The notes under the pieces: model-generated
The model's input: only the letters and a program-made list of their open reading frames with translations
The model's database searches: none
Told to the model about the DNA's origin: nothing
IMG/VR virus record: IMGVR_UViG_3300028453_000030
Source of the DNA: a virus
Lineage: Duplodnaviria > Heunggongvirae > Uroviricota > Caudoviricetes
Length of the DNA: 4,607 nt
Reading direction: 5' to 3' (one strand)
Position numbers and translations under genes: made by a program
Shown: in pieces, positions 54-4,290 of the stretch
How positions within the stretch are numbered: position 1 is the stretch's first letter
How the letters are laid out: every line of letters begins with the position of its first letter

Positions 54-173
54 TTATGGTTGAATAAGCCACTCGATATCTGGTGCTACGGAAGTGTCCA
101 CACGGTTTAGCAGCACCCGATACTTTTTCCAGGCTTCCAGCAACAAGTTTTCTTCCTCCGTTGCATATACAGC
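54..173 (-). pseudogene. tfa: 3' remnant of a tail fibre assembly gene (tfa): C-terminal 39 codons only, no start codon
   Basis: Minus-strand translation of 57-173 is [39 protein letters not shown], then TAA at 54-56. It is bounded upstream by an in-frame TGA (174-176) and has no ATG/GTG. The motif [24 protein letters not shown] matches the C-terminus of phage lambda Tfa as I recall it; this was not searched. Confidence 0.6.
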
Positions 174-183
174 TCACCTTTTT

Positions 184-477
184 TCACCCACGATTAACCA
201 ACAGCCAGACCAGCAGACACGCCACCACCGGCACAGCAAAATCCATCAGGCTTGCCACATCCCATGCACGTGTATCAAAACCGCCCCACCACGGCATATT
301 CATACGCTTGCCATGCCCGAACATTTCAATCCAGCGATATTCTGCCTGGGTGTGTTCACGCGCAATGAAGAACGTACAACCGGCTATCGCCCCGTAAGCC
401 CAGTTCCCGGTAAAAAGACCAATCAGTAGCTGCGCAGCCACAGCACAAAGCGCATGAAGGAAAGGTGTTATATCCAT
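184..477 (-). CDS. small integral membrane protein (~97 aa, three predicted transmembrane helices); function unknown, candidate prophage moron
   Basis: ORF 184-492 on the track. I prefer the ATG at 477-475 (MDITPF...) because AGGA sits 5 nt upstream; the track's TTG at 492 and the ATG at 483 lack a usable spacer. Hydrophobic stretches ITPFLHALCAVAAQLLIGLF, AYGAIAGCTFFIA and VASLMDFAVPVVACLLVWLLV suggest three helices. The antisense plus-strand ORFs are low-complexity. I do not recognise the family. Confidence 0.55.
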   Translation of the reverse strand: MDITPFLHALCAVAAQLLIGLFTGNWAYGAIAGCTFFIAREHTQAEYRWIEMFGHGKRMNMPWWGGFDTRAWDVASLMDFAVPVVACLLVWLLVNRG

Positions 478-490
478 TTTCATCCTACCC

Positions 491-513
491 AATAAAACGG
501 GGCGCTCGGCCCC
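491..513 (-). terminator. putative rho-independent terminator after the 346-aa gene
   Basis: On the minus strand, 2 nt after the TAA stop (522-520) lies GGGGC-cgagc-GCCCC (plus 499-513, 5-bp GC stem, 5-nt loop) followed by GTTTTATT. The stem is short, so strength is uncertain. Confidence 0.4.
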
Positions 514-519
514 TTAATA

Positions 520-1560
520 TTATTTAGACGCAAGCGCCGCCTCAATTGCAGATAATCTTTGTCTTAATTCTGCGTTTTCTTCTTCCAGTGCTGTTATTCT
601 GTCATCTGACTCTCTGGCTACCTGAACAAGCAAGCCAGTAACACCAGAATAATCTACTGTGTAATAACGTTCACCTTCTTCACCTTCCGATCCGCTTGCA
701 CCGTCCTGATATTTCATTGCGGAACCTACAACTTCTGGGATTGCTTCCAGAGCTTCCTGTGCAATGACACCAGCATAGGGCATACCGTTTTCTTTAAGCG
801 TGTATGTATAGCCGTTCATTTTACGGATGCGGTCGGTTGCATTATCGATCACCTGAATGTTGTCTTTCAGATCCCGGTCGGAATGCTGGTTAAATGTGGT
901 GGCATGACATGCACCATTAACGCTTAACATATAGGTGTTATCGGTATTTTTCTGCGCATAGAACATATAAGCGCCACCATCAACACCGACTTCATAAACA
1001 ACAGGACGGCTGGAGTTGCCCCACAATTGAGCAGTAACACCAGCATAAGCGGTTCCCTGTGTGTTTAATGTCATGGTTGACCCATGATTGGCATATTTGA
1101 TCTGTAATGTGTCGGTGTAATCAAATTTAATAAGCGCGTTACTTCCACGCTTGCTGTATGACATAAGGCAGTTACCCATTTTGAGGTATCCGCTGTCACC
1201 GGGAAAAATCATCGTACCGCCATAAAGGTTGGTAAAGTCCCAGCAAATGTTTGTCCCGTTATCGTTCAGGTTAAGGCGCGCCATTGCGTTACCTGGACTG
1301 TCTATCCATTTTTTGAGGTATAGTTCGCAATACGCATCCTCAACACCTGCCGTCCTGTGAGTTGAGCGGAGTTTTCTCCCAAATATAGCTCCGCTAGTTG
1401 GCAATACCTGCTGATACCATGAAACAGACCAGTCACCAACGATTTCATCTTTGCTGTCTACATATAATTTTGTTGCGTAGCTTCCTTGATCGTTTTTTAA
1501 TTTGCTAACGTCGGATTTTAGCGTTTTGATGTCATCAGGAATTACTGTCGATGTAGCCAT
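520..1560 (-). CDS. tail fibre / tailspike-like protein with C-terminal intramolecular chaperone (peptidase S74-type, endosialidase-chaperone) domain
   Basis: 346-aa ORF with RBS GAGG 7 nt upstream of the ATG at 1560. Residues ~227-346 (plus 523-882) read SDRDLKDNIQVIDNATDRIRKMNGYTYTLKENGMPYAGVIAQEALEAIPEVV...YYTVDYSGVTGLLVQVARESDDRITALEEENAELRQRLSAIEAAL. This is the S-D-x-x-x-K ... IAQE ... terminal coiled-coil pattern of self-cleaving C-terminal chaperone domains of phage fibres (K1F endosialidase, T5 pb1). The N-terminal ~226 aa are beta-rich with a short coiled-coil-like start. Confidence 0.85.
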   Translation of the reverse strand: MATSTVIPDDIKTLKSDVSKLKNDQGSYATKLYVDSKDEIVGDWSVSWYQQVLPTSGAIFGRKLRSTHRTAGVEDAYCELYLKKWIDSPGNAMARLNLNDNGTNICWDFTNLYGGTMIFPGDSGYLKMGNCLMSYSKRGSNALIKFDYTDTLQIKYANHGSTMTLNTQGTAYAGVTAQLWGNSSRPVVYEVGVDGGAYMFYAQKNTDNTYMLSVNGACHATTFNQHSDRDLKDNIQVIDNATDRIRKMNGYTYTLKENGMPYAGVIAQEALEAIPEVVGSAMKYQDGASGSEGEEGERYYTVDYSGVTGLLVQVARESDDRITALEEENAELRQRLSAIEAALASK

Positions 1561-1569
1561 TTTTCTTCC

Positions 1570-1851
1570 TCACATCCAGCCACGAAGTTGATGCTCAACA
1601 GCAACCACGTATTCATCGAATATTGACGATATTTGCGAATCATTAATGATGCGCACGTTTACAAAATATCCGTCTTCCTTAACACATACCGGTTCGCCAT
1701 CTTCAGTCAGTTCTCCGGTTTCTTTGTACACATTACCTATCACGTCAATAAGAATATCATCCTGCATCGACTCGTCATCATAATAGCCAATGCTCTCCAT
1801 AAAGGCCGAAAAGTCGGCCCTGTCTGCAAATTTGAGTGTTAAATCTTTCAT
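1570..1851 (-). CDS. small acidic hypothetical protein (93 aa), translationally coupled to the tail fibre gene; possible fibre chaperone or accessory protein
   Basis: The ATG at 1851-1849 overlaps the stf TGA stop (1850-1848) as ATGA, and GGAG lies 8 nt upstream inside the stf 3' end. The protein is D/E-rich (MKDLTLKFADRADFSAFMESIGYYDDESMQDD...). It has no resemblance to lambda Tfa; family not recognised. Confidence 0.55.
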   Translation of the reverse strand: MKDLTLKFADRADFSAFMESIGYYDDESMQDDILIDVIGNVYKETGELTEDGEPVCVKEDGYFVNVRIINDSQISSIFDEYVVAVEHQLRGWM

Positions 1852-4244
1852 TTAATACTCTCCCCCATTTGCGCATCAGTTAATTCTTTATGCCAGAGAC
1901 GAAGATTTCTCAAATGGCCGAATAGATGACGAGTTCCCGATGTGGCTTGACCTCCAATTCGAATAAAGGTCCGTGTTTTTACGCCCGTCCACTCCGTTTT
2001 CATAGTTTTAGTAGCCTCACCGTTAGAAACTACTCGTTTAGTACCATCAGAATAAATATTAAAACCACCAATGAATTTTCGAACATCAGTTCGACCAGCA
2101 AACACACTAGAAACGTAAGTACTTGTCGACGCTTTATAAGTTTGTATATAAAGCTGACCGTAATATTTCTCAGTTGTGTTAAAAGCGTATGTAATTGACT
2201 CAATAGGTGGCACACCAGAAAAATCAAAAATACGCGGTGCTACATTAGGAGGAATATCGCCCCAATTTCTATTGACCTCGACAAGACACGTAAGCGGTCT
2301 ATTATAGATATTATTTTCAGTTGGGATCGTCACCATATCACTGGAGCGGGTTGCGGGTGCAGTTGTCGTAATAACAAAAGATGAAGCACATCCGCCGTTT
2401 TCAAATTGTGGTGTTGCAAGGTAAATATAATCTCCCGCTTCAGTTATACCACCTTTTTTCGGCGCATACTGAATCATTGCGCCAATTAAGGCTTCACCTT
2501 CAACAGCTTCTATAGTTGCCTCATAGAAAATCCACCCTGTAACCGGATCTTTAGTTGCAGTAGCTGCTATTCTATTGGCTGCTCCGCCAGTTTTTTCTAT
2601 TATCAGAGTTCCGAAAGTTAAATAAGCATCTCCTAAAAATGTATAAACCGACCCATCGTATTTTTCAAAACGCAAACGACAACGAAGACCATCAGGAGCT
2701 TTAACCCTGCATGAAACAGTGCAATACTTATTATCGCCACTAACATCAATCCCCCGGGATGCACTGCATGTATGCAGACTAAGTGCAGATGATTGTCCTG
2801 TCATATTATCTTTTGTTCGCATTTTGGCATATAAAAAACCAAATTCATCAACACCATTATTAGTTTTATCGATATTGCTGGTACTCGTCCATTCAGCGGG
2901 AGTATTGGATTTAACAAAATAGTTAGTGCGCTGTCCTTCAATCAATAAACCTTCTTTTTCAAATCGTGGCTCATCAATTTTAGCAACACTAAATACGCCT
3001 GATTTATTGATATATGTGGCAGTTGATGCGCGTTTAAACTTAACAACCTTGTCGCCAGGCATCGTTATTTCATCATCACCAATAACAATTTTTTTATATG
3101 ACGGCGAAAAGCCCGTAATCATATCCAGTGAATCGTTAAACGGTATCCACACATCAGGCAGTGGCTGTAAGACATATTTATACGGCTCTGCTGCCTGACT
3201 TGCATACTCTCTGGCTGCGTCTTCACTTGCTTTAGCTGCTGTCTGGCTTGCTGCCGATGCTTTCGCCGAGTTCGCCGCTGCAGTCTCGCTTGTCTTTGCA
3301 TTGGTTTCACTGGTTTTTGCCGCTTTTTGACTGTTGGCTGATGCAGTGGCAGAAGCAGCCGCCGCGCTTGCAGAACCAGCTGCCGCGCTCTCGCTTTGGG
3401 CTGCTGCAACCTGGCTGTTTTTCGCCGCAGTTTCGCTGGCTTTGGCATTCGTTTCGCTGGTCTTCGCTGCCGTCTGGCTGGACTTTGCGTTAGTTTCACT
3501 CGTCTTCGCAGCTTTCTGGCTGTTAGCCGCAGCAGTTGCTGATCCAGCTGCTGAAGTCGCAGAACCGGCTGCCGCGCTCTCGCTTTGGGCTGCTGCAACC
3601 TGGCTGTTTTTTGCCGCAGTTTCACTGGCTTTGGCATTCGTTTCGCTGGTTTTCGCTGCCGTCTGGCTGGACTTTGCGTTGGTTTCGCTCGTCTTTGCGG
3701 CTGTCTCGCTATTTTTCGCGTTGGTTTCTGATTTTTTGGCTGCTGTCGCGGAGTTTGCCGATGCAGTCTTTGAGGTCGCTGCCGCCTGTGCACTATTAGC
3801 TGCATTCGTTTCTGAGGTTTTCGCCGCGTTCTTTGATGATGCCGCTGCAGTTTCGGATTTCTTTGCCGCCGCTGCGCTCTGAGAGGCGGCTTCGGCGTTG
3901 CGTGCCGCTTCTTCCACCATTACCTCAAAACGACGCAATGCCTCCGGCATGACATCCTCTTCCGTCATGGCACCGAGAAAATCATTCAGCGTGCCTGGTC
4001 TGGAACCTTCATAGACGGTAATGGTCCCGGCATGTGAAGGCGGAAAACCTTCAACCAGCAGGGTGACGCTGTACTGGCCATACTCAACATCCATGCTGTA
4101 ACGCCCGGCTTCATCCGGATTTTCAGAGGCCACCGTATTCACCAGTACCGTGGTGCTGTTACGCTTTGCTTTGAGCTGAATAGTGCAGTTCTGTATTGGT
4201 TTTCCTGCACCGTCTTTCAGCACGCCTGAAATCTGTACTGCCAT
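1848..4244 (-). CDS. stf: side tail fibre protein (Stf-like, 798 aa): lambda-type N-terminal domain, heptad-repeat Ala/Ser/Thr shaft, divergent C-terminal receptor-binding region
   Basis: ORF 1848-4250 on the track. I place the start at the ATG 4244-4242 (MAVQISGVLKDGAGKPIQNCTIQLKAKRNSTTV...), which has GGAG 5 nt upstream; the track's GTG at 4250 would add two residues. The N-terminal ~115 aa closely match lambda Stf (MAVKISGVLKDGTGKPVQNCTIQLKA..., recalled). Residues ~117-346 are AK.SETN-type heptads. The C-terminal ~450 aa (plus 1851-3212) are unlike lambda Stf and end ...FIRIGGQATSGTRHLFGHLRNLRLWHKELTDAQM, reminiscent of a LamG/concanavalin-like jelly-roll C-terminus. Confidence 0.9.
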   Translation of the reverse strand: MAVQISGVLKDGAGKPIQNCTIQLKAKRNSTTVLVNTVASENPDEAGRYSMDVEYGQYSVTLLVEGFPPSHAGTITVYEGSRPGTLNDFLGAMTEEDVMPEALRRFEVMVEEAARNAEAASQSAAAAKKSETAAASSKNAAKTSETNAANSAQAAATSKTASANSATAAKKSETNAKNSETAAKTSETNAKSSQTAAKTSETNAKASETAAKNSQVAAAQSESAAAGSATSAAGSATAAANSQKAAKTSETNAKSSQTAAKTSETNAKASETAAKNSQVAAAQSESAAAGSASAAAASATASANSQKAAKTSETNAKTSETAAANSAKASAASQTAAKASEDAAREYASQAAEPYKYVLQPLPDVWIPFNDSLDMITGFSPSYKKIVIGDDEITMPGDKVVKFKRASTATYINKSGVFSVAKIDEPRFEKEGLLIEGQRTNYFVKSNTPAEWTSTSNIDKTNNGVDEFGFLYAKMRTKDNMTGQSSALSLHTCSASRGIDVSGDNKYCTVSCRVKAPDGLRCRLRFEKYDGSVYTFLGDAYLTFGTLIIEKTGGAANRIAATATKDPVTGWIFYEATIEAVEGEALIGAMIQYAPKKGGITEAGDYIYLATPQFENGGCASSFVITTTAPATRSSDMVTIPTENNIYNRPLTCLVEVNRNWGDIPPNVAPRIFDFSGVPPIESITYAFNTTEKYYGQLYIQTYKASTSTYVSSVFAGRTDVRKFIGGFNIYSDGTKRVVSNGEATKTMKTEWTGVKTRTFIRIGGQATSGTRHLFGHLRNLRLWHKELTDAQMGESIK
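3213..3902 (-). repeat. coding 21-bp (heptad) periodic repeat region forming the fibre shaft
   Basis: The protein reads as consecutive heptads (AKTSETN, AKSSQTA, AKASETA, AKNSQVA, AAQSESA, AAGSATS ...). The DNA shows recurring gctttggc / gtttcgctgg / ctttgcg units. Confidence 0.7.
3370..3704 (-). repeat. in-frame tandem duplication, period 189 bp (63 aa, nine heptads), about 94% identical over ~146 bp per copy
   Basis: Copy 1 at 3370-3515 and copy 2 at 3559-3704 align with an offset of exactly 189 bp and about eight transition differences. The protein segment AKTSETNAKSSQTAAKTSETNAKASETAAKNSQVAAAQSESAAAGSA occurs twice. Confidence 0.85.
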
Positions 4245-4259
4245 ATTCACTCCACAAAT

Positions 4260-4290
4260 AAAAAAGGCGCCATTTCTGGCGCCCGTATTT
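4260..4290 (-). terminator. rho-independent terminator between the J remnant and stf
   Basis: Plus 4266-4283 is GGCGCCA-tttc-TGGCGCC (7-bp GC-rich stem, 4-nt loop). On the minus strand the hairpin is followed by TTTTTT (plus 4260-4265), then ATTTGTGGAGTGAAT-ATG of stf. The plus-strand side has only a weak T tract (cgtattt), so it works mainly for minus-strand transcripts. Confidence 0.6.

Follow-up and report, generated by a model that had tools for sequence, protein, structure and literature searches.

The stretch of DNA analyzed here, called the window below, comprises 4,607 nucleotides (nt) of a tailed-phage record in IMG/VR (IMGVR_UViG_3300028453_000030; Caudoviricetes), and our subject is a small open reading frame (ORF) of 93 amino acids (aa) that lies in it between two tail fibre genes. 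The ORF list and reading of the sequence place all genes of interest on the minus strand. The upstream gene, stf (1848..4250), encodes a side tail fibre of 800 aa that belongs to phrog_1419 (tail protein) and is composed of an N-terminal anchor of the lambda Stf type, a shaft of Ala-rich repeats and a C-terminal tip module (approximately aa 364-800; 1851..3161) recognized by NCBIfam, PDB and Laminin_G_3 matches. Membership among lambda-type Stf proteins is defined by the prophage tail fibre N-terminal domain, which was found at residues 3-133 (Pfam phage_tail_N, PF08400, E = 1.6e-66). The gene for the 93-aa protein (1570..1851) comes next and is followed by a distal fibre gene (520..1560; 346 aa; phrog_4563, E = 2e-220). 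The distal fibre consists of a conserved N-terminal segment of ∼25 aa (MATSTVIPDDIKTLKSDV...), an exchangeable receptor-binding part and a C-terminal Peptidase_S74 intramolecular chaperone at aa 227-278, corresponding to nt 882-727 (PF13884, E = 4.8e-14; 52.8 bits versus a gathering cut-off of 22). Terminator-like hairpins on the minus strand were found upstream of stf (4265..4284) and after the distal fibre gene (499..513), and a scan of the window gave none within the block formed by stf, the small ORF and the distal gene. Because the hairpins flank this block and none is internal, the three genes look like one transcription unit.

At the first junction, the ATG of the 93-aa ORF (1851-1849) overlaps the TGA stop of stf (1850-1848) to form ATGA (1848..1851), and the ORF also has a strong Shine-Dalgarno (SD)-like sequence of its own, GGGGGAGAG (1858..1866), within the last codons of stf. 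At the second junction, the TGA stop of the 93-aa ORF (1572-1570) is followed by GGA AGA AAA (1569-1561) and then, in the same frame, by the ATG of the distal gene (1560-1558). Stop and 9-nt spacer together read GGAAGAAAA (1561..1572). The SD-like motif of the distal fibre gene is GAGGA (1571-1567), which overlaps the stop of the small ORF and stands 6 nt before the ATG. The encoded 93-aa protein is acidic, with an isoelectric point (pI) of 4.05 and 21 Asp and Glu residues versus 7 Lys and Arg residues. A first-pass annotation, made from the letters alone, had already pointed out both junctions; its coordinates and its ATGA overlap were correct, and its account of the in-frame TGA, the three spacer codons, the ATG and the downstream ribosome binding site matched the sequence in every detail. 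The 442 aa that it gave as the length of a readthrough product becomes 443 aa once the residue inserted at the UGA is counted.

Homologous loci were collected from annotated phage records, IMG/VR contigs and GTDB genomes, giving 189 scorable loci whose small proteins fell into 34 clusters at 80% identity. The first scan of viral contigs returned close relatives alone, and distant queries together with a query for the tip motif brought further loci. By tblastn, the small gene is present in 186 phage records. These include lambdoid phages, the Drexlerviridae phages tonn, tunzivis and swan01, Dhillonvirus KarlBarth, Nonagvirus JenP1/2 and ESCO3, T5-like phages including IrisVonRoten, and rV5-like myoviruses including CarlMeissner and FFH2. 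Homologues at 30-59% identity occur across lambdoid, Drexlerviridae, Dhillonvirus, Nonagvirus, Tequintavirus and Vequintavirus phages. An overlap of the start codon with the upstream stop (ATGA or TAATG; 4 or 1 nt) was kept in nearly all clusters, the most distant among them, and spans ∼30 sequence clusters from at least six phage groups. The coupling to stf that the first-pass annotation had read from the ATGA overlap is thus a feature of nearly all homologous lineages. Judged by these comparisons, the 93-aa ORF is a real, separately translated gene that is independent of the gene downstream. The plus-strand ORFs at 1633..1842 and 1646..1783 were rejected as genes because conservation follows the minus-strand frame.

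Wherever the small gene was fetched with a complete upstream ORF, the upstream fibre ended in ...GH[ILV]RN.R.W...L.D.Q or a related LamG-like end, and its last ∼435 residues aligned to residues 364-800 of the window Stf. This tip module of ∼435 aa is 26-98% identical among the fibres of all lineages that have the small gene. It is made up of a conserved entry segment (RASTATYI.KSG...EPRFEKEGLLIEGQ.TN), a domain at aa 436-636 that resembles the head spike fibre of a gene transfer agent (GTA; NCBIfam GTA_spike_fiber, E = 2.4e-15; head spike fibre of PDB 6tb9, E = 0.029) and a LamG-like or concanavalin-like end, for which the Laminin_G_3 match (E = 4e-4) was below the cut-off. The window Stf ends in ...RHLFGHLRNLRLWHKELTDAQM, and the pattern of the LamG-like end is ...RHLFGH.RN.R.WH..LTD.Q. 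The test was also run in reverse: all 80 of the 80 loci found through the C-terminal motif of the tip, a set dominated by related E. coli prophages, carry a homologue of the small gene directly downstream. This result and the conserved overlap support the first-pass annotation, which had seen in the small protein a likely partner of the fibre, and mark that partner as a dedicated one. By the same comparisons, the small gene is the obligate companion of one type of tip, the GTA-spike-fibre/LamG tip, and tip and small gene appear to move between phages as one cassette.

Conservation is uneven along this cassette. Between otherwise near-identical prophages, the tip is hypervariable inside (mean pairwise identity 42-54%), whereas conservation of 65-78% was measured for its two ends, for the small protein (78%) and for residues 1-25 of the distal fibre. 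Such a pattern would be expected of an exchangeable, lectin-like receptor-binding domain. Between some loci whose small proteins are at least 90% identical, Stf residues ∼500-760 retain as little as 10-18% identity, with conserved flanks. The last 200 aa of Stf have a pI of 9.06, so that the fibre end and the acidic small protein are complementary in charge.

The small gene also occurs without a distal fibre behind it. A gene for a membrane protein of the phrog_1443 type comes directly after it in ev017, an isolated temperate phage, and in 18 related prophage loci (the L170 cluster). An integrase-like ORF starts 348 nt downstream in 12 further loci (L131). In rV5-like phages such as CarlMeissner, the small gene precedes a terminator-like hairpin, beyond which lies a homologue of rV5 gp040 that is annotated as a distal tail protein. 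Unrelated genes follow in L093, L112 and L114, and baseplate-like, scaffold-like or lipoprotein genes in the distant loci. These gene neighborhoods show the small gene to be independent of the distal fibre, and because many lineages lack a distal fibre, serving as an adaptor to it cannot be the core function of the small protein. The distal 346-aa fibre, with its own S74 chaperone, would be an optional second fibre. Its N-terminal pattern M.T.T.IP.DI..LK is conserved across phage families, and it is through this segment that the fibre probably attaches. In close relatives (L005, L024, L029, L056, L066, L067, L077 and others), one small protein (at least 90% identical) and the same first 25-32 distal residues are joined to at least six different distal bodies, of 346, 281, 234, 229, 227 and 171 aa. 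The alignments point to a putative recombination hotspot just after the conserved distal N-terminus.

Two further comparisons concern what the cassette replaced. The window holds no intact Tfa; a C-terminal remnant alone remains on the minus strand (54..146, read from 146 to 54), seen in the ORF list, and the corresponding segment is labelled “tail fiber assembly protein, incomplete, missing N-terminus” in RefSeq. This suggests that recombination put the present fibre cassette in place of the distal part of an older stf-tfa module. Note that a sub-threshold match to Rfam IS009 lies in the same region (88-186, minus strand; 57.6 bits versus a gathering score of 117; E = 1.3e-11). The second comparison is between the lateral fibres of CarlMeissner (L087, 562-5333) and rV5 (L200, 1-3495), which share 90% identity as far as residue ∼1049 before diverging. 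In rV5, a Peptidase_S74 chaperone (E = 1.3e-14) forms the end of the fibre, gp41, and the small gene is absent; the CarlMeissner fibre ends in a LamG-type tip followed by the small gene and the terminator-like hairpin. DNA similarity between the two phages resumes right after the stop of the small ORF. In rV5-like phages, tip and small gene are, on this alignment, the allelic alternative to a tip that ends in an intramolecular chaperone. Because rV5 itself lacks the small gene, the proteomics of its virions (PMC3606486) are irrelevant to the presence of the small protein in virions.

The second junction raises the possibility that the small ORF and the distal fibre gene are a split gene, or that programmed readthrough of the UGA at 1572-1570 yields a functional fusion of the small protein to the S74 fibre of 443 aa. 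The two ORFs do share a frame, the 9-nt spacer is open, and they are separated by UGA, in E. coli the leakiest of the three stop codons. Two adjacent same-strand genes with a 9-nt spacer are expected to share an open frame by chance in ∼29% of cases, and 9 of the 17 well-defined lineages with a close downstream gene are in frame, at a spacer length of 9 or 12 nt. The excess over chance is weak (p about 0.08), and the 9-nt junctions include several that are clearly related to each other. The frame is broken in the other lineages: six have spacers of 10 or 11 nt, and in the remaining two the genes are either 2 nt apart or overlapping, or separated by 98 nt with a terminator-like hairpin. Of the nine lineages in frame, seven stop with TAA, and TGA is confined to the window's own lineage and the L170 cluster. 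In L117/L118, a homologous 346-aa fibre (∼83% identical outside the N-terminus) follows TGAGGGGTAATATATG, a 10-nt spacer that puts it out of frame, and the close relative L067 has a second in-frame stop (TGA GGG AGA TAA ATG). What the spacer variants of the relatives retain is a purine-rich SD, not an open frame.

The proteins argue in the same direction. An exhaustive HMMER search of 1.84 billion representative proteins gave 51 homologues and no full-length fibre fusion; 49 of them are 36-150 aa long, and the two long ones (1797 and 2928 aa) match 26-30 query residues only. None of the 120 matches listed from the search of 5.8 billion proteins exceeds 114 aa. Both polypeptides are conserved as free ends: 18 of 22 aligned homologues of the small protein end one residue past a near-invariant Trp (...R-x-W-A/M-stop), and the N-terminus of the distal fibre is likewise conserved as a free end. 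A frameshift fusion of the small ORF with the upstream Stf was rejected as well, there being no long full-length homologue. The RNA at the junction has no stable structure (minimum free energy z-score 0.51) and contains no Rfam element and no element resembling a selenocysteine insertion sequence (SECIS), and a selenocysteine or structured readthrough signal was accordingly discarded as a candidate. UGA-C, not UGA-G, is the weakest terminator context, and the base after the UGA of the window is G. The distal gene, moreover, has its own SD at optimal spacing. The spread of spacers is what results when an SD lies on or directly after the stop, 5-9 nt from the ATG, and the shared frame would be a by-product of this spacing. 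The in-frame arrangement looks like a coincidence of gene spacing rather than a hidden fusion protein, a split gene or readthrough maintained by selection is rejected on this comparative evidence, and we consider a functional 443-aa fusion extremely improbable; background leakage, as at any UGA, may still occur. The first-pass annotation had kept a split gene or readthrough fusion in view, to be judged by whether homologous loci are ever fused, and had named other frames or longer spacers as arguments against it. No fused homologue was found, and the relatives have different frames, a 98-nt spacer, TAA stops and a second stop. Its own preference for ordinary coupling fits the downstream SD and the changing frame among lineages.

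The small protein gave a full-length match to phrog_1361, a family without assigned function (E = 1.5e-46; residues 1-93 on profile positions 1-92 of 92), and no Pfam or NCBIfam family at E ≤ 0.1. The family is already known in PHROGs, and its members are annotated as “hypothetical protein” in thousands of E. coli genomes. The search of 5.8 billion proteins returned 227 close homologues. An AlphaFold2 model computed with an alignment of 24 sequences reached a predicted local distance difference test (pLDDT) score of 83.6 and was used in place of a single-sequence model (pLDDT 50), which was discarded. The predicted domain is small, of the alpha/beta type, and followed by a conserved, flexible tail at the C-terminus (...R-x-W-M) that is modeled with low confidence. 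The predicted fold is generic and has no similarity to gp35, gp38 or any solved fibre component, and the protein has no demonstrable relation to gp57A. The literature searched describes two-part fibres and gives the small protein no role; the DT57C structure paper and the Eligo lambda-vector preprint are both silent on it.

We favor, with slightly better than even confidence, a role for the small protein as a trans-acting assembly or trimerization partner of the Stf tip. Ribosomes finishing stf would make the small protein by way of the ATGA overlap and its own SD. The acidic protein would then bind the basic tip (pI ∼9) and assemble or trimerize it in trans, the job that Tfa does for lambda Stf and an intramolecular chaperone does elsewhere, and it may stay bound to the tip afterwards. 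The distal 346-aa fibre would be initiated from its own SD, which overlaps the TGA stop and 9-nt spacer. The first-pass annotation had suggested a chaperone that replaces Tfa: the Tfa remnant, the persistence of the small gene without a distal fibre and the allelic swap in rV5-like phages are consistent with the replacement, sequence relation to Tfa was not found, and the chaperone role itself stays putative. Several points weigh against the assembly role. Binding to the tip and chaperone activity are both purely inferred from sequence, and the 80 loci retrieved through the tip motif are not 80 independent events. Divergence of the small protein tracks the first 25 residues of the distal fibre best (r = 0.80, versus 0.61 for the last 40 residues of Stf), a correlation that fits an adaptor at least as well and is confounded by genomic adjacency.

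Such an adaptor would be a virion component at the end of Stf, a structural hinge on which the distal fibre docks by its N-terminus as in the case of T4 gp35. Lambdoid, Nonagvirus, T5-like, Drexlerviridae and Dhillonvirus phages do share the order of proximal fibre, small protein and distal fibre. Conservation of the distal N-terminus M.T.T.IP.DI..LK goes along with that of the small protein, as the correlation of pairwise identities above indicates, and the conserved C-terminal tail, for all its low confidence, could be a docking peptide. In IrisVonRoten, for which a proximal and a distal fibre have been described (PMC11990801), the homologue is annotated “tail fiber protein”. We nevertheless hold the adaptor to be unlikely as the principal role, given that the gene is kept and coupled to the tip without a distal fibre in ev017, L170, L131, the rV5-like phages and the distant loci, that small proteins at least 90% identical are paired in some loci with unrelated distal N-termini (minimum 12% identity), and that similarity to gp35 or any solved fibre component is lacking. 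In phages with a distal fibre, the protein could still serve as an adaptor in a secondary role. Somewhat less probable still is an accessory or cap that stays on the tip and modulates or adds to receptor binding, like the gp38 adhesin of T2/S16; the “transient chaperone caps” that reportedly occur on Alteromonas phage fibres would be a precedent. A cap would account for the same association and coupling as an assembly partner does, and the tip interior is hypervariable, as for a receptor-binding domain. For the galectin-like domain of the homologous gp22, the authors of the BASEL collection paper suggested a role in receptor binding, as an additional domain of that kind (PMC11990801). The small protein, however, is much less variable than the tip interior, which argues against a determinant of specificity, and it has no structural similarity to gp38. 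The assembly role may also be stated in a broader form, which we put forward as a doubtful proposal: phrog_1361 would be a new class of trans-acting tip-assembly factor, unrelated to Tfa, gp38, gp57A or S74 and specific for GTA-spike-fibre/LamG tips, that stays on the tip and in some phages serves as the docking hub for an exchangeable fibre of the M.T.T.IP.DI..LK type. If true, this would define a portable cassette of tip, partner and, optionally, plug-in fibre that is common to siphoviruses and myoviruses.

The remaining observations concern the surroundings of the window and the outlying loci. Over more than 90% of its length, the window DNA is 98-99% identical to lambdoid prophages in 47 complete E. 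coli genomes, and a 2-kb query was 91-98% identical over at least two-thirds of its length to the isolated phages Tritos, 2G7b, HannyBb, PhiR63_1 and Nonagvirus ESCO3. A predicted membrane protein of 102 aa (184..492, minus strand) belongs to phrog_1443. Proteins of this type (97-102 aa) close the fibre module, with a 12-nt spacer after the small gene in relatives without a distal fibre (L170 and L202, the latter being ev017; 3292-3585), and are possibly superinfection-exclusion or lysogenic-conversion proteins. The Stf shaft contains 2.3 copies of a 189-nt tandem repeat (85% match; window 3276-3710; Stf residues ∼180-325) that encodes a sequence rich in Ala, Ser, Thr, Lys and Glu (KTSETNAK.S.TAA...). 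Stf length ranges from 682 to 828 aa among relatives, and the shaft repeat is perhaps the source of this variation.

A search of genome contigs gave three loci, two from Escherichia and one from a bin labelled Collinsella. The latter (L091, JAGZNZ010000051.1; 2.8 kb; Collinsella sp. bin) holds a 94%-identical copy of the small gene of an E. coli prophage and is most likely a binning contaminant. Several records named “Campylobacter phage” (MG0656xx) or “Listeria phage” (OR84xxxx) show 99-100% identity at this locus to rV5-like or T5-like phages of E. coli and are probably mislabelled or contaminant assemblies. Distant homologues of 107-141 aa were found in IMG/VR loci of non-enterobacterial appearance (L112-L114, L111, L101 and L107), some with acidic C-terminal extensions past the R-V-W motif. 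In these loci the upstream genes encode large proteins ending in ...RLAYWPTRLPDATLQALTT or similar, and the next gene encodes a lipoprotein, a scaffold/protease-like or a holin-like protein. Through the distant loci, the cassette may be connected with head or tail fibres such as the head spike fibre of the Rhodobacter capsulatus GTA (RcGTA).

Taken as a whole, the in-frame TGA is ordinary gene packing, and what the locus offers is a small uncharacterized protein that is the constant companion of a widespread tip module in coliphages of at least six groups and seems to occupy the genetic position of Tfa or an intramolecular chaperone. For swaps of the Stf tip that retarget lambda-type particles, and for prediction of host range from fibre genes, tip and small gene should be handled as one unit, with the distal S74 fibre as a separable add-on. 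The comparative pattern also gives a testable function to an unannotated family that is relevant to fibre engineering.

Among the closest known systems are Tfa of lambda and other tail fibre assembly proteins (Caudo_TAP), small proteins that are likewise encoded directly downstream of the fibre whose C-terminal tip they would serve, and the remnant in the window suggests that the small-gene cassette replaced a Tfa-dependent tip. The 93-aa protein is half the size of lambda Tfa (∼194 aa), differs from it in its generic predicted fold and has no sequence relation to it by the family searches above. Peptidase_S74 chaperones, as in the K1F endosialidase and T5 pb1, occupy the equivalent genetic position in the rV5-like swap, and they too would help a tip to fold. 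The S74 domain has an autoproteolytic motif; the 93-aa protein is a separate polypeptide rather than a cleavable domain and does not match PF13884, and a true S74 domain, above the gathering score, is carried by the neighboring 346-aa gene. The gene order resembles that of T4, where gp35 is the small connector between the proximal (gp34) and distal (gp36/gp37) fibre, and a joint role is possible where a distal fibre is present. T4 gp35, however, is 372 aa long against 93 aa here, no similarity in sequence or fold was found between the two, and the small gene persists without a distal fibre. The readthrough protein A1 of Q-beta likewise involves a UGA followed by open in-frame sequence, but in the window the downstream frame belongs to a separate gene that has an SD and a start codon of its own, and frame, spacer and UGA vary among relatives. 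Homologous modules are found in IrisVonRoten (Bas32), whose lateral tail fibres are described in the BASEL collection paper as two-part or T-shaped; AlphaFold models of gp22 and gp24 in that work give a proximal and a distal fibre with a galectin-like domain protruding from gp22, and gp23 is given no role (PMC11990801). In our comparison, the C-terminal galectin-like domain of the proximal fibre gp22 corresponds to the Stf tip (45% identity), gp23 is the homologue of the small protein (39% identity) and gp24, which contains an intramolecular chaperone domain, is the distal fibre. The version in the window sits instead on a lambda-type Stf anchor, in a prophage, and is combined with a shorter distal fibre.

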